Below are positions 4,373 through 60,561 of a stretch of 60,561 bases of DNA, in pieces. The stretch's first letter is position 1; the number at the start of each line of letters is the position of its first letter. The notes beneath the pieces were generated by a model that ran no database searches, was not told where the DNA came from, and saw nothing but the letters and a program-made list of their open reading frames with translations. The stretch lies in IMG/VR virus record IMGVR_UViG_3300034069_000591, positions 1 through 60,561 of that record; one strand, given 5' to 3'. This stretch comes from a virus. The position numbers were made by a program, and so were the translations under genes.

Positions 4373-4409
4373 GCCCCTCGAGCTGGGGGCGCGGCGCGCC
4401 ACGCCCGGG

Positions 4410-4446
4410 TTGCGCGCCGTGTTTCCCCGGTAATACGCTCGCGGTC
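4410..4446 (+). promoter_or_regulatory. leaderless-type promoter (TTGCGC, 18 nt, TACGCT)
   Basis: TACGCT at 4434-4439 lies 8 nt before ATG 4447. CCCCGGTAATACGCTC box. No SD. Confidence 0.55.
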
Positions 4447-4638
4447 ATGGGAACAGACACCATCACCGCACGGCCCGCCGTCGGCTCCATCATCGTCCGC
4501 GACGGCGTCGAGTACGTCGTCACCGCCTACCCGACGGCGAACCTCGACGTCCTCTCCGACGTCGTGTTCATCCGCAAGGTCGGCGGTAAGCGCTCCGTCC
4601 GCGCGAACCTCTCCAAGCTGCTCGGCGGTGCCCGATGA
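4447..4638 (+). CDS. hypothetical protein (63 aa, starts MGTDT)
   Basis: ATG lies 8 nt after TACGCT with no SD. Internal start within track ORF 4171..4638. Confidence 0.6.
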   Translation: MGTDTITARPAVGSIIVRDGVEYVVTAYPTANLDVLSDVVFIRKVGGKRSVRANLSKLLGGAR

Positions 4639-7055: not shown

Positions 7056-7076
7056 CGCCTCCGACCGTCCGACCCG

Positions 7077-7112
7077 CGCGCCGTCCTGCTCCCCCCGGAG
7101 TGGGGCGGCGCG
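7077..7112 (+). terminator. GC-rich hairpin (factor-independent terminator candidate)
   Basis: CGCGCCG/CGGCGCG outer stem plus CCCC/GGGG inner stem, 22 nt after the stop at 7055. Confidence 0.45.
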
Positions 7113-7137
7113 TTCGTGCGCGACGCGCCACGACGCG

Positions 7138-7173
7138 TTGTGCGCGGTGCTTCCCCGGTAATACGCTCTCCAC
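7138..7173 (+). promoter_or_regulatory. leaderless-type promoter (TTGTGC, 18 nt, TACGCT)
   Basis: TACGCT at 7162-7167 lies 7 nt before ATG 7174. Same CCCCGGTAATACGCTC box. Confidence 0.55.
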
Positions 7174-7386
7174 ATGGGAACCGCCACCGCCACCTCGCTC
7201 AAGCAGCTCCGCGCCATGCGCGCCGAGTTGCACACCGACCTCGCCAAGCAGGCGCTTATCGTCGAGTCGCTCGACCGACCGGGCGTCGACCCCGCCCGCC
7301 TCGAGCGCGCCTCCGAGCAGATGGAAGCCATGCACATCGAGCTCACCGACCTCGACCGCGTCATCGCCAAGGCGGTCGCGGCATGA
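7174..7386 (+). CDS. hypothetical coiled-coil protein (70 aa, starts MGT)
   Basis: Track ORF. ATG lies 7 nt after TACGCT with no SD. Confidence 0.6.
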   Translation: MGTATATSLKQLRAMRAELHTDLAKQALIVESLDRPGVDPARLERASEQMEAMHIELTDLDRVIAKAVAA

Positions 7387-8443: not shown

Positions 8444-8475
8444 GGACGACAGCGCGAGCCGCTACCCAAGCCCCG

Positions 8476-8507
8476 AGGCCCCTCCTGCACACGCGGGAGG
8501 GGCCTCT
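8476..8507 (+). terminator. 11-bp hairpin GAGGCCCCTCC/GGAGGGGCCTC
   Basis: Perfect stem with a 10-nt loop. Lies between the stop at 8440 and the promoter at 8546. Confidence 0.5.
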
Positions 8508-8545
8508 CCGCGTCCCCGCCCCTAGCAACGACGGTACGTCCACGG

Positions 8546-8557
8546 TAGACTCGTCCG
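8546..8557 (+). promoter_or_regulatory. leaderless-type promoter (TAGACT)
   Basis: The hexamer ends 7 nt before GTG 8558. Confidence 0.5.
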
Positions 8558-9157: not shown

Positions 9158-9312
9158 GCGACGTCCAGAAGCGTCCCGACGCGTGGCGCTACGTCTGCCC
9201 CCGATGCGGCGAGGTCGGCGAGTACCGCGACCGGAAGTGGTGGGCCGCCGAGGAGCTCGCCGCGCACAACGTCGACCGCCACGGCGGCGCCGCCTACGAT
9301 CCGACCCCATGA
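9154..9312 (+). CDS. hypothetical CxxC protein (52 aa)
   Basis: GTGA overlap. Open frame checked by hand. Contains CPRCG. Confidence 0.4.
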   Translation: MSDVQKRPDAWRYVCPRCGEVGEYRDRKWWAAEELAAHNVDRHGGAAYDPTP

Positions 9313-9935
9313 CCCTCACCCCGACCTCCAACGGCCGGCGCGGCGGACAGACCAAGGTCAGCCTCCCCCGCCTCAAGCGGTTCATCCAGCTCGTCTCCTC
9401 CGGCCTCACCCTCGGCCAATCCGCCAAAGGCATCGGCATCGGCGACCAGACCCGCCGCGACTGGATGCGACGAGGACAACTCGAACTCGTCCGCATCAGC
9501 GACGACGGACACGACCCCTTCGACGACCTCGACACCTCAGAACGAGGCTGGCCCACCGAGCAGACCTGGACCCAGATCCCCCCCGACTTCGACCCCTACG
9601 AGTGGCCGTTCGTCGTGTTCGCCGTCGCCGTCGAAAAAGCGCTCGCCGAGTTCGAGGCCCGCAACGTCGCGATCATCCAGCGCGCGGCGTCCGGGGCGCC
9701 GGCTCAGGACGGGCGGCCGGCGGTCGAGCCGACGTGGACCGCGGCGGCGTGGCTGCTCGAGCGCCGGTTCCCCGAGCTGTACGGCCGCAGCGAGGCGCGG
9801 ATCAAGCAGGCCATGGAGGTCACGCTCCGGCCGGCGGGCACGTCGGGCGATGCGGCGCCGCTGACGGTCGACGACCTCGAGGCGAGCCTCCGCGAGATGG
9901 AAGCGGTCGAGGCGGAGCGGTCGCGGCAGTCGTGA
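9309..9935 (+). CDS. HTH DNA-binding protein, terminase-small-subunit-like
   Basis: The HTH LTLGQSAKGIGIGDQTRRDWMRRG and the C-terminal AAAWLLERRFPELYGR are typical of actinophage TerS proteins. It lies about 12.7 kb from TerL. Confidence 0.5.
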   Translation: MTLTPTSNGRRGGQTKVSLPRLKRFIQLVSSGLTLGQSAKGIGIGDQTRRDWMRRGQLELVRISDDGHDPFDDLDTSERGWPTEQTWTQIPPDFDPYEWPFVVFAVAVEKALAEFEARNVAIIQRAASGAPAQDGRPAVEPTWTAAAWLLERRFPELYGRSEARIKQAMEVTLRPAGTSGDAAPLTVDDLEASLREMEAVEAERSRQS

Positions 9936-10049: not shown

Positions 10050-10343
10050 GTGGCTGACGACATCGCGAAGGTGCGCTCGATCCGCACCACCGACGCCCTC
10101 TGGGCCGACCTCGGGGAGCGGGCCAAGGTCGCCGGCAAGCCGCGCGGCACGTACGTCGTGGATCAGCTCGAGCGGCCGTCGTTCTCGGCCGCGCTCGAGA
10201 CGGCGGAGACGGTCCTCGACGAGGACGGCCGCGCCGCGGTGCTCGAGCTCGCCGGCGAGGGGCCGCTCGCCGGGTGGACCGCGTCGAGGATGCGGGCGCT
10301 CGCGGCCGGCCTCAACGCCCTCGCGAGCCGGTGGCCCCGCTGA
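10050..10343 (+). CDS. ribbon-helix-helix (Arc/CopG-like) DNA-binding protein
   Basis: VRSIRTTDALWADLGERAKVAGKPRGTYVVDQLE fits a beta-alpha-alpha RHH pattern. The gene sits behind an 18-bp palindrome. Confidence 0.6.
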   Translation: MADDIAKVRSIRTTDALWADLGERAKVAGKPRGTYVVDQLERPSFSAALETAETVLDEDGRAAVLELAGEGPLAGWTASRMRALAAGLNALASRWPR

Positions 10344-17336: not shown

Positions 17337-17501
17337 CGTCGGCGCAAGGTCCGTCCCGCGAACTGTCACCGTATGGTGCGCGTGCCCCCCGCGGGCTAGC
17401 GGGCGGACCGCAAGCCTCGGCCGCCGGCGCGGGGCTCGGCCTCCAAACCCGAGCTCGCGGGGATCGACACCTCGACGGGGTGCGACGCGCCACCGCATCT
17501 G

Positions 17502-17518
17502 GCCCCCCGCCGGGGGGC
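17502..17518 (+). terminator. 7-bp hairpin GCCCCCC-GCC-GGGGGGC
   Basis: Read directly. Lies just upstream of the TAGTGT promoter. Confidence 0.35.
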
Positions 17519-17522
17519 GCCC

Positions 17523-17535
17523 TAGTGTGGCCGTC
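17523..17535 (+). promoter_or_regulatory. leaderless-type promoter (TAGTGT)
   Basis: Ends 8 nt before ATG 17536, followed by ATGGGAACAGACACCA. Confidence 0.5.
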
Positions 17536-17931
17536 ATGGGAACAGACACCACCACCATGACCGCGCCCGACCTCCCGGGCCCCGACCGCCTCGACCCCGA
17601 CGGGCTCCTCGCCGGCACCGCCGAGGTCTACGCGTGGGCCGGCGCTCGCGGCCACAGCTTCACCGAGGAGGACGACCTCCGCCGGCGCGGTTCGACCCCC
17701 GTCCCGTACCGCGCCGCGCTGCTCGACGCGTGGCTCCTCGCCGGGCAGCACGACCACGCTCGCCTCCGCACGATCCACCCCGAGTACGCGGGCGCGATGC
17801 TCGTCTACAAGATGCGGGGCCTCGCCGGCGTCCGAGAGTTCCTCGACGCGCTCGAGGCCGACGTCGCCGACCTCACCGAGCAGCGTCGCCGCTCGACGTG
17901 GCAGCCCGCCCGCGCGACGGTGACCCGATGA
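17536..17931 (+). CDS. hypothetical protein (131 aa, starts MGTDT)
   Basis: ATG lies 8 nt after TAGTGT. The first 17 nt are identical to the gene at 4447. Confidence 0.6.
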   Translation: MGTDTTTMTAPDLPGPDRLDPDGLLAGTAEVYAWAGARGHSFTEEDDLRRRGSTPVPYRAALLDAWLLAGQHDHARLRTIHPEYAGAMLVYKMRGLAGVREFLDALEADVADLTEQRRRSTWQPARATVTR

Positions 17932-20206: not shown

Positions 20207-20508
20207 CCGGCGCGCCCGCGCCCGAGGCCGTCCGACGGGCCTCGTACCGTGAGCCGACCGTCACGGGGATCCTCGAGACGATCGACACGGACCTCTGGGG
20301 GGCGGACATGGCGGCGCAGCGCTCCGAGCTGCACAAGGTGCTGTTCATCAGCCTCGGCGGCACGCTCGAGGAGTGGGCCGCCGGCGACCAGCGCGACCGC
20401 GAGGCCGACGCGCTGTTCCGGGCCGCGGGCATCCAGGCCCAGGCCGTCATCGAGTGGCTCGCCGGCCTCCAGGCCGAGCAGCGCCGCCAGCGGAAGGAGC
20501 GACCGTGA
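20203..20508 (+). CDS. hypothetical protein (101 aa)
   Basis: ATGA overlap. Confidence 0.6.
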   Translation: MTGAPAPEAVRRASYREPTVTGILETIDTDLWGADMAAQRSELHKVLFISLGGTLEEWAAGDQRDREADALFRAAGIQAQAVIEWLAGLQAEQRRQRKERP

Positions 20509-20942
20509 TCGAGTCGTGCGAGGCCCACACCCGGTCCGGGGCGCGCTGCAAGCGGGAGCCCGTCGAGGGCGGGACGCTATGCGCGATGCACCTCCGCATC
20601 GCGCAGGAGCAGATCGACGCCGCGCTCGAGCAGGCTCTCGCCGACGACGTCGCGCGCGCCCGGGCCTCACATGTGGAGACGGGTGGGGATACTTCCCTCG
20701 TGGCCGACCTCAGCATCCGCTCCGGCGACGGCACCGAGCAGCCGCCCGCCGTGCTCGCCGTGATGGGCGCCGCGCACCGCGTCGCGCAGGGCTGGGCGCC
20801 GTCCGACGCCGAGCTCTCCCGCTCGATCGTCGACGACCTCGACGCGCTGCACGCCACCGACGCGGACCTCGAGGCGCTCATCGACGAGGGCGTCGTCGAG
20901 GACTGGGCGCGCGGGTACTGGCGCGCACTCCAGACCGCCTGA
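20505..20942 (+). CDS. hypothetical protein with an N-terminal Cys/His motif (145 aa)
   Basis: GTGA overlap. Contains CEAHTRSGARC...CAMH. Confidence 0.6.
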   Translation: MIESCEAHTRSGARCKREPVEGGTLCAMHLRIAQEQIDAALEQALADDVARARASHVETGGDTSLVADLSIRSGDGTEQPPAVLAVMGAAHRVAQGWAPSDAELSRSIVDDLDALHATDADLEALIDEGVVEDWARGYWRALQTA

Positions 20943-20968
20943 CCTACCGGGCGGGCGTGCTTCCCCGG

Positions 20969-20980
20969 TAGACTCGGGGC
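20969..20980 (+). promoter_or_regulatory. leaderless-type promoter (CCCCGGTAGACT)
   Basis: TAGACT ends 7 nt before ATG 20981. Confidence 0.55.
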
Positions 20981-21280
20981 ATGGGAACCGAGTTCATCAA
21001 CGCGCACTCCTGCCCGACGTGCGGCCTCCGCGCCGACGCCGTGACGGGCCTCAAGGACAGCGAGCATCCCGACGACGGGGCGCTCTCCATCTGCATCCGC
21101 TGCCTCACCGTCGCGGTGTTCGAGACGTTCGCCGGGCACGTCGCCGTGCGGCCGATCCGCCCCGAGGAGCTCGAGGCCGCGCGCCGCGACCCGAAGTGGA
21201 CCGAGACCCTCGCGAACCTCGACCGGGCGCGCGAGGACCGGGCGACGCGGCGGCACTTCATGGCCGGCGGCGCCGCGTGA
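20981..21280 (+). CDS. zinc-ribbon-like protein (99 aa, starts MGT)
   Basis: ATG lies 7 nt after TAGACT. Contains CPTCG...CIRC. Confidence 0.6.
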   Translation: MGTEFINAHSCPTCGLRADAVTGLKDSEHPDDGALSICIRCLTVAVFETFAGHVAVRPIRPEELEAARRDPKWTETLANLDRAREDRATRRHFMAGGAA

Positions 21281-22429: not shown

Positions 22430-22672
22430 GTGGCCCAGCCGACCGCTCAGACCGACCTCTCCCCGCAGGAGCGGAGCGTCGCGTCCCTGTTCGCGGTCGA
22501 CGGGCTCCGCGTCGCCGAGGTGGCCGATCGGCTCGGCCTGACCGTCGAGACGACCAAGTCCTACCTCAAGCGGGCCCGGTCCAAGTACCGGGCCCGCGGC
22601 GTCGACGCCTCCACCCAGCACCGCCTCCGCGTCGCCCTCGAGGCCGACCGGGAGACGACCCCGACGTCGTGA
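22430..22672 (+). CDS. LuxR/sigma-70-region-4-type HTH protein (80 aa), a possible small terminase or late regulator
   Basis: LSPQERSVASLFAVDGLRVAEVADRLGLTVETTKSYLKRARSKY is a GerE-type HTH. GTG lies 7 nt after TACCCT. GTGA overlap with TerL. Confidence 0.6.
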   Translation: MAQPTAQTDLSPQERSVASLFAVDGLRVAEVADRLGLTVETTKSYLKRARSKYRARGVDASTQHRLRVALEADRETTPTS

Positions 22673-25320: not shown

Positions 25321-25396
25321 GCGCGTCGCCGCCGCGTACGCCCGCGCGCGACTCGTACCGTGGCACCCGCACCGACCGTCTACCGAGGGAGACTCC

Positions 25397-27995: not shown

Positions 27996-28035
27996 CCTCC
28001 GCGCGTCGCGCGTGGACGGCCGTACTCCCGCGCGC

Positions 28036-28047
28036 CACAATGCACGC
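28036..28047 (+). promoter_or_regulatory. leaderless-type promoter (CACAAT, weak)
   Basis: Ends 7 nt before ATG 28048. The upstream CGTACTCCC resembles the sequence at 59399. Confidence 0.35.
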
Positions 28048-29232
28048 ATGACGCAGATCCGGCAGACCGTCGACCTCGACACCGCCCGCGACCTCGCGGA
28101 GCGCGGCCTCATCGGCGACGGCTTCGAGAAGTCCCTCGCCGAGCTCGGCGCCATGAACTACGCGCAGGTCGACGTCGTGATCGACTACGGCCCGAACGGG
28201 ACCAGCACCGTCGGGATCGCTCCCGTCAACGGCATCATGGTCGGATTCTTCCTCCCCTCGTGGGTCGGCGAGCAGGTCGCGCTCCCCGGCGGCGAGCAGG
28301 TCAACGGCCTGCACATCACGCTCGCCTACCTCGGCGAGCTCGACGCGCTGAACGTGAACCAGCAGCGCACCCTCATCGGCGTGTGCGCCGAGCTCGCCCG
28401 CGACTCGCACGCGCTCCGCGGCGTCCTCCGCGGCATCAACACCTTCCCCGCCGAGGAGGGCGGCGACGGCGCCGGCTACACCTCGGACTCGATCCCGCTC
28501 TACGCCGGCGTCGACGTGCCCGGCCTGTTCGAGCTCCGCGGCGCGCTGCTCCGCGCGCTCGACGACGCCAAGATCCCGTACGACAAGACGCACCCGAACT
28601 ACGTCCCCCACGTCACCCTCGCCTACGTCGACCCCGAGGCCGCCGACGAGGACGCCCTCACCGCGTTCCAGCTCGAGCCCGTCGACGTCACGCTCCGCGA
28701 ACTCACCGTCGCGATCGGCGGCGCGCACTTCACCTCGACGCTGTTCGGCGAGGTGTGGGACGACTACGGCGTCGCGCCCGAGTACCAGCGCACCGGCCCG
28801 TCCGCGTACCGGCCGACGATCGCCGTCGCCAAGGCCCTCACCCTCGAGGAGGAGCGCCGCTTCACCCTCGCCCCGATGTACCTCCCCGACACCCTCGACG
28901 GGCACGGCGAGTGGGTCGACGGCCTCGACCTCGAGCAGTCGTTCCACGACTTCATGGCCGACTTCGCCCACGAGGGGATCCGCCTCCAGCACGAGCCGGC
29001 CGTCGTCGCCGGCAAGGTCGTCGAGGGCTACATCCTTCGCGAGCCGCTCGAGGTCGAGGTCCCCGTCCCCGGGAACGAGACGGTCATGGAGAAGCACCTC
29101 TACCCCGCGGGCACGCCGATGATCGGCACCCGGTGGGAGCCGTGGGCCTGGCCCCTCGTGAAGGACGGCACGATCCGCGGCTACTCGATGGGCGGCACCG
29201 CGACGCCCGTCGACGAGTCCATCGGTGCCTGA
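28048..29232 (+). CDS. 2H phosphoesterase (LigT-like) fused to an XkdF-like putative prohead protease domain
   Basis: Two HxTx motifs: LH89ITLAYLGE (28312) and PH188VTLAY (28609). The C-terminal half (RFTLAPMYLPDTLDGHGEWV...FHDFM...GYSMGG) resembles the XkdF/S78_2 family. Confidence 0.65.
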   Translation: MTQIRQTVDLDTARDLAERGLIGDGFEKSLAELGAMNYAQVDVVIDYGPNGTSTVGIAPVNGIMVGFFLPSWVGEQVALPGGEQVNGLHITLAYLGELDALNVNQQRTLIGVCAELARDSHALRGVLRGINTFPAEEGGDGAGYTSDSIPLYAGVDVPGLFELRGALLRALDDAKIPYDKTHPNYVPHVTLAYVDPEAADEDALTAFQLEPVDVTLRELTVAIGGAHFTSTLFGEVWDDYGVAPEYQRTGPSAYRPTIAVAKALTLEEERRFTLAPMYLPDTLDGHGEWVDGLDLEQSFHDFMADFAHEGIRLQHEPAVVAGKVVEGYILREPLEVEVPVPGNETVMEKHLYPAGTPMIGTRWEPWAWPLVKDGTIRGYSMGGTATPVDESIGA

Positions 29233-53888: not shown

Positions 53889-54308
53889 ATGGCCACCGAT
53901 CACCTCTCGCCGGCGGACACCACCGCCCTCCTCCTCGCGTTCGGCTATCCCGCGCCGGCCGCCGACGAGCTCACCGCCGGACTCCGCGACGTCGTGCAGG
54001 ACTTCCAGCGCGACGCCGGGCTCAACCCGTCCGGCAACCTCACCCTCGAGACGGTCCGCCGGCTCCGCTCCCGCCCGACGCTCCAGGCCGGCGACGTCCG
54101 CGTCGAGGTCCGCGCGTTCCAGCAGGCGATGCGCGCCCGCGGGTTCCGTCTCCGCGTCTCCGGCGTGTTCGGGCAGGACGACCTCAACGCGCTGAACGAG
54201 TATCAGGGGCAGGTCGGCATCACCCGCTCCGGGGTCGTCGACGCCGAGACGTGGGAGGCACTGGGATGGGCACTGCCGGCAACGGACGGATCACCGTCGA
54301 CGGACTGA
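53889..54308 (+). CDS. tandem peptidoglycan-binding (PG_binding_1-like) domain protein
   Basis: Two repeats of the VxxFQ..xGLxxxGxxxxxT pattern (DFQRDAGLNPSGNLTLETV; EYQGQVGITRSGVVDAETW). Confidence 0.65.
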   Translation: MATDHLSPADTTALLLAFGYPAPAADELTAGLRDVVQDFQRDAGLNPSGNLTLETVRRLRSRPTLQAGDVRVEVRAFQQAMRARGFRLRVSGVFGQDDLNALNEYQGQVGITRSGVVDAETWEALGWALPATDGSPSTD

Positions 54309-56322: not shown

Positions 56323-56408
56323 GACGGCTCGGAGCGGGGCCCAGCGATGCGCGTACTCCCACGGTAGCGGGTGGCGCTGACGCATGCCCCTGCTCAGAAG
56401 GGAACAGC

Positions 56409-58701: not shown

Positions 58702-58704
58702 TCC

Positions 58705-58732
58705 GGCGCGCCCCCTGTATCGGGGGCGCGCC
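58705..58732 (+). terminator. 11-bp perfect hairpin GGCGCGCCCCC/GGGGGCGCGCC
   Basis: 4 nt after the helicase stop, with a 6-nt loop TGTATC. Confidence 0.55.
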
Positions 58733-58759
58733 CGTCTACCGTCCGCGGTGCTCCCCCGG

Positions 58760-58772
58760 TAATATGCCCCCC
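58760..58772 (+). promoter_or_regulatory. leaderless-type promoter (CCCCGGTAATAT)
   Basis: TAATAT ends 8 nt before ATG 58773. Confidence 0.55.
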
Positions 58773-59063
58773 ATGGCTACCCCGGAACAGCAGGAGCGCG
58801 CGGCCCGGCTCCGCTCCTCACTCGTGCTCAAGGCGAAGGAGCTCGAGGAGGCGGAGAAGGCAGTCGACCGTCTCCGCGAGCAGCGCCGCACCCTCATCCT
58901 CGCCGGCCGCGAGGACGCGACCCTCAGCTACGTCGAAATGGCGAAGGCGTCGGGCCTGTCCAAGCCGCAGGTCTACAAGATCGTCCGCGACGGGTTCAAG
59001 GAGGCGCCCATCGGCGAGTGGGCGAAGGCCAACGCCGACGTCGAGGAGCCCGTCTCCGCGTGA
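58773..59063 (+). CDS. HTH DNA-binding protein (96 aa)
   Basis: SYVEMAKASGLSKPQVYKIVRDG. ATG lies 8 nt after TAATAT. Confidence 0.55.
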   Translation: MATPEQQERAARLRSSLVLKAKELEEAEKAVDRLREQRRTLILAGREDATLSYVEMAKASGLSKPQVYKIVRDGFKEAPIGEWAKANADVEEPVSA

Positions 59064-59374
59064 GCGCCGTACTCCTCGCCCCCACCCTGACCGTCGGCGA
59101 CGCCGCGGAGGCGTTCACCCACGCGCGCCTCGGCGAGCAGCTCGTCTGCCGCGAGCCCGACGAGGACGGCGTCGAGACGCCCGGCCTCACCGCCTCCGAC
59201 TGGGGCGACGACGGCCCCCGCGAGAAGGACGCCGCGGTCGCCTGCATGCGGTGCGCGGTCGTCGCCGAGTGCGGGATCTACGCCCTCGTGGCCCGCGAGC
59301 CGCTCGGCGTCTGGGGCGGCATGACGAGCACCGAGCGTCGACGCATTCTCCGACGGTCCGGCGTCCGTCTCTGA
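59060..59374 (+). CDS. whiB: WhiB-family transcription factor
   Basis: Four Cys (C...CMRCAVVAEC) followed by GVWGGMTSTERRR. Confidence 0.85.
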   Translation: MSAVLLAPTLTVGDAAEAFTHARLGEQLVCREPDEDGVETPGLTASDWGDDGPREKDAAVACMRCAVVAECGIYALVAREPLGVWGGMTSTERRRILRRSGVRL

Positions 59375-59410
59375 CCCCCGACGGGGTGGCCCTCGGTCGT
59401 ACTCCCCCGG

Positions 59411-59423
59411 TAGACTCTGGGGC
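59411..59423 (+). promoter_or_regulatory. leaderless-type promoter (CCCCGGTAGACT)
   Basis: TAGACT ends 8 nt before ATG 59424. Confidence 0.55.
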
Positions 59424-60299
59424 ATGGGAACACCGCACTTCACTGTCCTGACCGACGGCCTCGACGAGGTCACATGGCGCGAGCAGCGCCGCCCCGGCGT
59501 TACCGCCACTGACGTCGCGCGACTGCACTCCGGCGGCGCCGGGACGTGGGCCGCGATCCGCGCCGAGAAGCAGGGCACCGAGCCCGACTTCACCTTCCCC
59601 GCGATGCAGCACGGCAAGGATCGCGAGCCCGTCATCGCCCGGTTCGCCGAGCGCCGGTTCGGTCTCCGCCCCTCGCGCGCCGTGCTCGCCGCGGTCGACG
59701 ATCCCCGGTGGCGGGCGACGCCCGACGGGATCGGCGACGCCGCCGTCGGCGAGTACAAGACCACCGTCGTCGACTGGCCCACCCTCGACGACCTCCCCGT
59801 CCCGTACTACGACCAGGCGACCTGGCAGATGCGCGTCACCGGCCTCCGCGAGGCGCACCTCGTGTTCGAGGCCCACGAGGGCGGGATTCCGCTCCACATG
59901 GAGCCGCGGTCGTTCCTGATCCGGTACGACGACGTCTACGCCCGCGAGCTCGAGGAGGTCGCCGAGCGGTTCCTCGCCGCGGACACCGCGCCGGACCCTC
60001 GCGCCGCCGAGCTCGACGCGCTGATCAGCCTCCACCTCGAGGCGAAGGCCCTCGAGAAGGCAGCGGCCGACCGCGTCGAGGCGATCGGGCAGCAGGTCCG
60101 CGACCTCGTCGGAGGCGACGAGGGCAAGTTCATATTCGAGGGCTCCTACGGCAACCTCACCCTCGGCAAGACCTCGACGCGCGCCGGGTTCGATCGCGCC
60201 GGCCTCGAGGCCGAGGCCCCCGAGCTCGCCAAGAAGTACGCCACCACCATCAGCGTCCGCGGGCGCCTCACGATCAGCGCCCGGAAGGCAGACCGATGA
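59424..60299 (+). CDS. YqaJ/lambda-Exo-like recombination exonuclease
   Basis: GVTATDVARL and the PD-(D/E)xK-like TPDGIGDAAVGEYKTT. ATG lies 8 nt after TAGACT. Confidence 0.85.
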   Translation: MGTPHFTVLTDGLDEVTWREQRRPGVTATDVARLHSGGAGTWAAIRAEKQGTEPDFTFPAMQHGKDREPVIARFAERRFGLRPSRAVLAAVDDPRWRATPDGIGDAAVGEYKTTVVDWPTLDDLPVPYYDQATWQMRVTGLREAHLVFEAHEGGIPLHMEPRSFLIRYDDVYARELEEVAERFLAADTAPDPRAAELDALISLHLEAKALEKAAADRVEAIGQQVRDLVGGDEGKFIFEGSYGNLTLGKTSTRAGFDRAGLEAEAPELAKKYATTISVRGRLTISARKADR

Positions 60300-60561
60300 C
60301 CGAGACCACGAGCACCTTCACCCCTCGCCCGGCCCCCGAGTCGCCCGGCGAGGGCCTCGCGCTGATGCGCACCCCGTTCCCCGTCAACCAGGTGTCGCTG
60401 CTCCCCCGCAACGTCCGCAAGTCCGTGCAGGGCGAGGACCGGTTCAAGTGCGAGCCCGGCTCCCCGGACTCCCGCAAGGCGTCGCTCGACGGCCGGTACT
60501 GCGGCGGCTACCACGCCCTCTCGATCCACCTCGACTACGTGGGCCACGCCGCGATCACCGA
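60296..60561 (+). CDS. Rad52/Sak-type annealase, 5' part (continues at position 1)
   Basis: ATG 60296 in an ATGA overlap. The ORF runs off the window end and is in frame with 1-613. Confidence 0.8.
   Translation, partial: MTETTSTFTPRPAPESPGEGLALMRTPFPVNQVSLLPRNVRKSVQGEDRFKCEPGSPDSRKASLDGRYCGGYHALSIHLDYVGHAAIT
60421..60561. repeat. Terminal overlap copy 2 (identical to 1-141)
   Basis: Same 141 nt as the window start. Confidence 0.95.

Follow-up and report, generated by a model that had tools for sequence, protein, structure and literature searches.

The late promoters of phage P1 consist of a -22 box and a -10 hexamer, lack a -35 hexamer and are served by the activator Lpa. The leaderless promoters of Actinobacteria, which give rise to ~25% of mycobacterial mRNAs, carry a TANNNT hexamer so placed that the start site of transcription (TSS) is the A or G of the start codon (PMC9094748), and a Y-1 R+1 Y+2 'start' element, which is centred 7-8 bp after the -10 hexamer and conserved across bacteria, determines where transcription begins in 79-93% of library promoters in E. 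coli (PMC12641261). In Cluster K mycobacteriophages (e.g. Adephagia), the 13-bp start-associated sequence (SAS) is located in the leader 3-9 bp upstream of the start codon, where it overlaps the ribosome-binding site (PMC11373665; Pope et al. 2011), and the extended SAS (ESAS) combines SigA-like -35/-10 hexamers with a 15-17 bp inverted repeat, neither element having a known function (PMC11373665). Further, near-identical promoters before non-homologous genes have been described as promoter reuse, or putative mobile promoters, in prokaryotes (PMC3575422), and variants of the initial transcribed sequence (ITS) can shift promoter output greatly, and a case has been made for counting the ITS as promoter sequence (PMC5961368). 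In the present work, we describe a group of sites in the IMG/VR virus record IMGVR_UViG_3300034069_000591, the complete 60,561 bp of which were analysed (referred to below as the window), where a 14-nucleotide (nt) box, a -10 hexamer and an octamer beginning with the start codon recur ahead of unrelated genes. We consider it reasonably probable that these sites are copies of a lineage-specific promoter cassette for leaderless mRNAs in non-structural phage genes, in which the box and the transcript start are kept by selection on the nucleotide sequence.

The box core CCCCGGTA occurs five times in the window, always on the + strand (4425, 7153, 20963, 58754, 59405), and the octamer ATGGGAAC is likewise present five times on this strand (4447, 7174, 17536, 20981, 59424). 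The mean numbers in shuffled sequences were 1.15 and 0.34, respectively, and 0/100 shuffles reached five copies of either element, so that the five box sites and five octamer starts claimed in an earlier reading of this DNA (the sequence-only reading) are both real. All five ATGGGAAC copies are the best-scoring start codons of + strand open reading frames (ORFs) that follow intergenic gaps. The pattern given for the box in that reading, [GT]G[CT]T[TC]CCCCGGTA, holds for four sites but fails at the fifth (59400), where an A stands in place of the required G, and its box ranges start one to two bases off; the pattern GT[GA][CT]T[TC]CCCCGGTA matches all five boxes (4419, 7147, 20957, 58748, 59399). 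The 14-nt consensus of the box is GTRYTYCCCCGGTA, and it abuts or overlaps the -10 region. Including the gene at 58773, which starts ATGGCTAC as the sequence-only reading had it, six genes follow these elements and their proteins are unrelated past residues 1-7; this applies also to the five that begin with Met-Gly-Thr, in line with the same reading. The features at these sites are as follows.

4419..4432, + strand: upstream box GTGTTTCCCCGGTA; a TTGCGC -35-like hexamer 18 nt before TACGCT is read from the sequence
4434..4439, + strand: -10 hexamer TACGCT, 7 nt before ATG; with the alternative TAATAC at 4431-4436 the leader would be 3-4 nt long
4447..4456, + strand: predicted leaderless start ATGGGAACAG of a gene for 63 amino acids (aa), 4447-4638
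7147..7160, + strand: upstream box GTGCTTCCCCGGTA
7162..7167, + strand: -10 hexamer TACGCT, 6 nt before ATG
7174..7183, + strand: predicted leaderless start ATGGGAACCG of a 70-aa gene, 7174-7386
17523..17528, + strand: -10 hexamer TAGTGT, boxless, with a GC hairpin ahead; TACCGT in the orthologue on contig L235
17536..17545, + strand: predicted leaderless start ATGGGAACAG of a 131-aa gene, octamer without box
20943..20988, + strand: ~40-nt cassette with box GTGCTTCCCCGGTA (20957-20970), TAGACT (20969-20974), discriminator CGGGGC and ATGGGAAC at 20981
58748..58761, + strand: upstream box GTGCTCCCCCGGTA; the orthologue on contig L114 retains TCCCCCGGTA
58760..58765, + strand: -10 hexamer TAATAT, 7 nt before ATGGCTAC at 58773 (helix-turn-helix (HTH) gene, followed by WhiB at 59060); box, no octamer
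59399..59412, + strand: upstream box GTACTCCCCCGGTA; GTCGTACTCCCCCGGTAG is identical over 18 nt in L114
59411..59416, + strand: -10 hexamer TAGACT, 7 nt before ATG
59424..59433, + strand: predicted leaderless start ATGGGAACAC of the RecE/YqaJ-like exonuclease gene, 59424-60299

At all six sites a TANNNT -10 hexamer (TACGCT twice, TAGACT twice, TAATAT and TAGTGT) is found 6-7 nt before the start codon, and on the + strand of the whole window 18 of the 47 TANNNT copies are located 6-8 nt before a start codon (p ~ 2e-28). The hexamer and the ATG are separated by a G/C-rich discriminator of 6-7 nt that ends in C, and since the base at -1 is C in all six genes, the sequence over -1/+1/+2 is C-A-T. 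This match to the Y-1 R+1 Y+2 element, together with the spacing of TANNNT, predicts that +1 is the A of the ATG. No Shine-Dalgarno (SD) sequence is present in the sequences upstream of the six starts, and a scan for E. coli-type -35/-10 promoters found no canonical sigma-70-type pair at the sites; a -35-like TTGNGC is seen at only two of the five box sites (4447 and 7174), the other three being without any -35 match. The six sites are predicted to be promoters for leaderless mRNAs, agreeing with the actinobacterial sigma-A-type class in every sequence criterion that is testable in silico: TANNNT placed 6-7 nt before RUG, no SD sequence, a weak or absent -35 and C-A-T at the start (PMC9094748, PMC12641261). 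They differ from this class in having an additional 14-nt lineage-specific box, which is not enriched in a sample of Microbacteriaceae, and an invariant transcript start of 9-10 nt.

The position of the box relative to the start is of two kinds. At 20981, 58773 and 59424 the box spans about -24 to -13 and there is no -35, while at 4447 and 7174 it lies 3 nt farther from the start. The hexamer TACGCT serves also the genes at 10050, 29557 and 29874, all of which are without the box. As TACGCT is the hexamer in the leaderless register at 4447 and 7174, the TA of the box there belongs to the overlapping TAATAC and the box is displaced outwards by 3 nt; hence, at these two sites out of five, the box and the -10 hexamer used probably do not share the same TA. 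Box and octamer occur together in four of the 18 strict TANNNT-N6-8-start promoters (4 of 5 of each; Fisher p = 0.008). However, the octamer is found without the box at 17536 and in the orthologue of this site, and the box without the octamer at 58773 and in its orthologue, from which it is clear that the two are separable elements. The proposal of the sequence-only reading that these sites form a discrete promoter sub-family, with conservation extending from the -10 region into the first codons, is in this manner supported by the sequence.

The codons in the octamer indicate that the shared start is a feature of the nucleotide sequence. GGA makes up 70/1,607 Gly codons (4.4%) and ACA 8/1,206 Thr codons (0.7%), yet codon 2 of the octamer genes is GGA in 5/5 (p = 1.6e-7) and codon 3 is ACA in 3/5 (p = 2.9e-6). 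Because codons this rare fill positions 2 and 3, the Met-Gly-Thr start is to be regarded as a nucleotide-level feature. Position +4 is occupied by G in 10/18 leaderless genes versus 14/99 other genes (p = 3e-4), where the usual A predominates (63/99), and 8/11 ATG-type leaderless genes read ATGGNNAC. If Met-Gly-Thr were instead selected as an N-terminal peptide (e.g. for Met excision exposing Gly, stability or targeting), then its presence in five proteins and in the closest exonuclease homologue would be explained, and a further protein, encoded at 54266, also starts with Met-Gly-Thr, written ATGGGCACT. However, besides the use of rare GGA and very rare ACA, the proteins concerned belong to different classes and show no relationship to each other, the gene at 58773 has a box promoter but starts with Met-Ala-Thr, and the exact GGA/ACA codons are kept by orthologues, as described below. 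Selection on the protein, which the sequence-only reading had already held to be less likely, is based on these observations very improbable. The hexamer GGGAAC, of which 7/10 copies on the + strand are within 25 nt of a start codon, is also the -35 consensus of extracytoplasmic function (ECF) sigma factors. The possibility that it represents the -35 of an ECF-sigma (SigH/SigE/SigR-type) promoter inside the genes is refuted, and carries practically no weight, as no CGT[CT] or GTT is found 14-20 nt downstream of GGGAAC at any of the five sites.

Three Logan contigs identified by a protein search served as relatives. Two of them (L114 and L235) are from one sequencing run (SRR29078107) and were taken as the nearest relative, with 60-73% protein identity, and the third (L236) is from SRR20462242. 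L114 is syntenic with the window from the helicase gene to ~1.8 kb and its exonuclease is 73% identical; exonuclease homologues at <=52% identity start with MS or MT, while this nearest one starts with MGT. The HTH-gene promoter of L114 reads TCCCCCGGTAGTAT-CGGGGGC-ATG and its exonuclease promoter GTCGTACTCCCCCGGTAGCAT-CGGGGC-ATGGGAACAG. In the latter, the box over 18 nt (GTCGTACTCCCCCGGTAG) and the 9-nt ATGGGAACA are identical to the window, while the upstream and intergenic flanks, the variable -10 positions and codons 4 onward all differ. In the L235 orthologue of the gene at 17536 (61% aa identity), which reads CTACCGT-GCTCGGC-ATGGGAACAG, the hexamer and the discriminator are changed and the start is kept. 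The comparison with related genomes that the sequence-only reading had proposed has thus revealed three orthologous promoters which retain the box and/or ATGGGAACA(G) despite diverged flanks, an outcome in favour of that reading. Across 13 orthologue pairs, 50 A/T-ending window codons are found at conserved residues and seven of these are retained; for the GGA/ACA codons of the exonuclease gene and the gene at 17536 the retention is 4/4 versus 3/46 elsewhere (p = 1.5e-4). GGA/ACA are the only rare codons that are systematically kept in the nearest relative. As a side observation, the discriminator of the HTH promoter is GCCCCCC in the window (58760-58772) and CGGGGGC in L114 (953-965), i.e. 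a strand-swapped G/C run.

Other searches did not extend this sampling. A megablast search of a phage collection identified no close relative, and the best identities in IMG/VR were only 27% for the exonuclease and <=52% for the capsid. Pattern scans for box-N-octamer gave only chance matches (32 in IMG/VR and at least 120 listed for the JGI metagenomes), which came from sequences of all GC contents and none of which was homologous by tblastx. The protein of the gene at 17536 had no homologue in a search of 5.8 billion proteins, its orthologue being reached only via the terminase contig, and a search for a longer contig of the L114 phage gave none. The RTGGGAAC sites of the Arthrobacter/Microbacterium phages ValentiniPuff, Kovu, Ottawa and Laroye were rejected, as they are not promoter-linked starts, and three temperate relatives with ~50% exonuclease identity (L261, L262 and L237) have neither box nor octamer, their exonuclease gene being embedded in an operon.

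The site at 20981 provides information on how the cassette came to be where it is. The genes at 20505-20942 and 20981-21280 have orthologues in both L235 and L236 which overlap by ATGA/GTGA, with no promoter between them and with the N-termini MKAQE/VTGVD. The window has ~40 extra nt at this position, comprising a stop codon, the box, TAGACT, CGGGGC and ATGGGAAC, and protein similarity starts at codon 3. As the cassette is absent between the coupled genes of these relatives, the cassette and the first codons were either gained in the lineage of the window or lost in the others. The cassette is therefore portable, having been placed before unrelated genes whose first two or three codons it replaced. 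Further, the copies form a mosaic of long exact blocks: the sites at 7174 and 20981 share 14 + 10 nt, those at 4447 and 7174 share 18 nt, and those at 4447 and 17536 share 19 nt (GTCATGGGAACAGACACCA, 4444-4462 versus 17533-17551), which bears out the identity of 19-20 nt noted earlier for the last pair. These sites resemble promoter reuse (PMC3575422) in the near-identical promoters before non-homologous genes, one copy being an insertion relative to relatives, but here the reused unit extends over codons 1 to 3 and in this way rewrites the N-terminus.

Based on these exact blocks, the insertion/loss of one copy and the documented reuse of promoters before non-homologous genes (PMC3575422), it could be suggested that the shared sequence is merely a residue of recent duplication or gene conversion among promoters, with the octamer having hitch-hiked along without a function of its own. 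However, the octamer and the box are identical in orthologues whose proteins are 27-47% diverged and whose intergenic surroundings are scrambled, and other rare codons have been lost in 43/46 cases. Neutral copying accounts for the origin of the copies but not for their retention, and as a full explanation it is improbable.

Under the explanation that we favour, viz. a cassette kept by nucleotide selection, its parts would be the 14-nt box GTRYTYCCCCGGTA, the TANNNT -10, the 6-7 nt G/C-rich discriminator ending in C and a transcript that starts from the A of the ATG, and its presumed reader is the host sigma-A-type RNA polymerase. The box would mark a promoter class, acting either as a spacer or extended -10-proximal contact that strengthens these -35-poor promoters or as the site of a phage regulator; as host promoters do not in general carry the box (see below), these two roles are the most likely. 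The sequence AUGGGAACM(G), purine/A-rich and composed of rare codons, would be at the same time the ITS and the 5' end of the leaderless mRNA, and we infer that it tunes promoter escape and/or direct loading of the 70S ribosome on the 5'-AUG, the two being non-exclusive.

The regulator alternative can be taken further: the box, alone or together with +1 to +10, may be an operator at which a DNA-binding protein of the phage turns the promoter class on or off, for which the HTH protein (58773) and the WhiB-like protein (59060) are candidates. It would then be likened to the -22 box of P1 late promoters or to the repressor sites over phiC31 early promoters. That the box is no host-promoter feature and yet is conserved in L114, that in the -35-less promoters it adjoins the -10, and that six of the seven copies with <=1 mismatch are intergenic and head successive early-region operons would all accord with such a site. 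The 3-nt variation in the distance between box and start would be better tolerated by a repressor site than by a polymerase contact, and the first box operon contains both the HTH and the WhiB gene, which are syntenic in L114 and expressed from a box promoter. Against this, no consistent dyad or direct repeat is found in the box, the CCCCG...CGGGG inverted repeat around the -10 hexamer being present in only 4/7 copies, and the lack of a dyad weighs against a classical operator; further, the octamer is kept without the box at 17536 and in its L235 orthologue, so that one operator cannot cover both elements. We regard an operator as a somewhat unlikely explanation, albeit the strongest of the rival ones. 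The WhiB-like gene (59060-59374; Pfam PF02467) is inside the first box-promoter operon and syntenic in L114, and its protein is a candidate modifier of the host sigma-A.

In order to place the cassette against a host background, 201 Microbacteriaceae genomes (G001-G201) were used as a proxy host group, chosen because a prophage of Microbacterium esteraromaticum encodes the closest homologue of the exonuclease among cellular genomes; the true host may differ. In these genomes, where orthologous host genes are counted repeatedly, TANNNT-N6-7-ATGGGAAC occurs 108 times versus ~43 for a reversed-pattern control, and three synonymous versions of the octamer combined occur 223 times versus ~184 (control sums added by hand from tables). 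Eight of ten sampled host hits (loci L238-L247) open real ORFs of several families with high G+C at third codon positions. Examples from the host family include an oligoribonuclease-like family (MGTPNEYMVWIDCEMTGL) and a MGT[IVL]YYGG...IEIEDRALAHLK family. In putative leaderless ATG-GGN-AC starts of the host family GGA makes up ~33% of GGN, versus ~8% in a small coding sample, and codon 2 of its leaderless genes shows an excess of GCA, GCT and GAA as well, which fits the AT-rich initial transcribed region reported for Actinobacteriota. However, among leaderless ATGGNNAC starts GGA is found in 8/150 for the host family and 5/8 for the phage (p = 8e-5), and CCCCGG is ~1/16 of SSSSGG before TANNNT-N6-7-RTG in the host family, hence not preferred. 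We conclude from these sequence comparisons that the host family has a generic A/T preference at codon 2 of leaderless genes, and that the fixation on ATGGGAACA and the box are the phage lineage's own.

A number of observations weigh against the cassette with a nucleotide-selected transcript start. The 3-nt shift of the box at 4447 and 7174 means either that there is no fixed register between box and -10, or that these two mRNAs have a leader of 2-4 nt through use of TAATAC. The comparison with relatives covers one close lineage (L114 + L235, same run) and three promoters, the orthologues of the genes at 4447 and 7174 not being found. The GGA signal could in part be due to a generic AT-rich 5' preference in the host family. 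Leaderless initiation has three determinants, among them the accessibility of the start codon (PMC8459731), but in the leaderless set the 5' accessibility was predicted to be just marginally above that of other genes (p = 0.07), and because of this weak difference a structure-based explanation was rejected. Lastly, a 5' AUG/GUG is held to be sufficient for leaderless translation in mycobacteria and no downstream element has been described (PMC9094748).

In view of this sufficiency of a 5' RUG and the weak difference in accessibility, a sequence-specific role of the octamer would be new. Two further explanations for it were rejected by reasoning, without computation in the first case: pairing of GGGAA with the anti-SD sequence would involve <=4 bp on the wrong side of the AUG, and avoidance of YG pauses does not distinguish the octamer, as its common synonymous version ATGGGCACC is likewise free of YG steps (reasoned from PMC5961368). 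As a tentative extension of the cassette, which we think has a lesser though real chance of being correct, AUGGGAACA(G) may be a dedicated 5'-terminal element of leaderless mRNAs; in Actinobacteria, leaderless expression would then have, for the first time, a sequence-specific determinant besides the 5' AUG. Its reader would be the initiating polymerase and/or the 70S ribosome, or else a factor of the phage, and together with the phage-specific box it would form a plug-in unit able to turn a translationally coupled gene into an independently expressed one.

Comparison with the known systems shows both similarities and differences. As in the Cluster K phages, short conserved sequences are present at the starts of many unrelated non-structural genes, some of them joined to a repeated promoter module. 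However, in contrast to SAS, the conserved part is here at +1 to +10 in the coding sequence, there is no leader, and the gap from -10 to ATG is only 6-7 nt; in contrast to ESAS, there is no sigma-70-type -35/-10 pair (TTGNGC being present at 2/5 sites) and inverted repeats are inconsistent. On these sequence features, the sites should be interpreted as an analogue of Cluster K SAS/ESAS and not as a member. The P1 late promoters and the GTCGTGAC-N2-nAnnnT leaderless late promoters are similar in having a box directly upstream of the -10, no -35 and often a start at AUG, as is seen at 20981, 58773 and 59424, while 4447 and 7174 have the shifted box and a TTGNGC; the box described here is of a different sequence and dyadless, it serves early/replication-side operons instead of virion genes, and conservation continues into +1 to +10. 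No Lpa-like activator of P1 type was identified among the scanned window proteins, the HTH and WhiB genes being the only candidates. With the ITS effects on promoter escape (T5 N25, lambda PR; PMC5961368) and with T7-type promoters conserved through +6, the sites share that +1 to ~+10 travels as part of the promoter unit, but the enzyme in those systems is the RNA polymerase of E. coli or a single-subunit polymerase of the phage. Pfam and PHROG scans of 29 proteins, which included all large early-region ones (the 20 largest), detected neither an RNA polymerase nor a sigma factor encoded by the phage; these scans gave helicase, replication initiator, ParB, WhiB and HTH proteins and the exonuclease.

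The window has a G+C content of 72.9% and ~117 genes (called by codon usage), every one on the + strand. Its final ORF (60296-60561) runs on in frame into 2-613, and the joined gene, which sits directly after the RecE/YqaJ-like gene, corresponds to one 236-aa gene adjoining the exonuclease gene in L114; the end-to-start ORF and its match to a single gene indicate that the genome is circularly permuted. The structural genes occupy ~22-46 kb (terminase 22669, portal 25397, capsid 32003). The non-structural part, running from ~55 kb through the origin to ~22 kb, contains the endolysin, replication initiator, DnaB-like helicase, HTH protein, WhiB, RecE/YqaJ-like exonuclease and many small genes, and the box/octamer sites are confined to it. 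The product of 9309-9935 (208 aa) matches the PHROG 'terminase small subunit' family, yet its gene is 13 kb from that for the large subunit, and an 80-aa HTH gene immediately before the latter (22430-22672) is a small-subunit candidate by position. Very stable GC hairpins without U-tails are present just upstream of most copies (4373-4420, 7076-7147, 17501-17519, 58704-58733, 8475-8507), and a scan of the window for U-tail terminators found none. These hairpins are candidate factor-independent or I-shaped terminators between small operons, and their location before most copies suggests separate transcription units.

Widening the box family to copies with two mismatches gave a number not above chance (39 found versus 38 expected). 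Two further candidate members have been noted.

8534..8551, + strand: weaker member GTACGTCCACGGTAGACT, 6 nt before GTG 8558; two box mismatches, alone not above chance
56353..56370, + strand: box GTACTCCCACGG with one mismatch, then TAGCGG; ~40 nt farther on is ATG 56409, which has an SD sequence (GAAGGGAACAGC-ATG)

The second of these is possibly a leadered member that heads the replication-initiator/DnaB module. The sequence GGGAACAGCA is present again 20 nt before the ATG at 2633. In L235 (6175-6205), GTCGTACTCCCCCG, which is the left part of the box, precedes a TAGCGT by 21 nt in front of the portal gene, and the window has the looser GTACGCCCGCG (25336-25361, portal) and GTACTCCCGCG (28022-28041, gene at 28048), each with two mismatches and not above chance.

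Leaderless translation in Actinobacteria is now described as needing only a 5' AUG or GUG, and initial transcribed sequences are seldom considered in the annotation of phage promoters. The phage described here is a compact natural test case, in which a transcript start of 9-10 nt is held against a strong codon bias, conserved across diverged orthologues and evidently transplanted with its promoter; what is unusual is that a transcript start written in rare codons is conserved and that it has moved along with the promoter. If the octamer alters mRNA yield or ribosome loading, then the leaderless pathway would gain a further determinant, and the octamer would provide a ready-made expression part for high-GC organisms. 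If only the box matters, then it would define a temporal promoter class and point to its regulator, in a lineage of uncultured phages with hypermodified DNA. If neither of them matters, then these sites would be a clean case of promoter reuse rewriting the N-termini of proteins.

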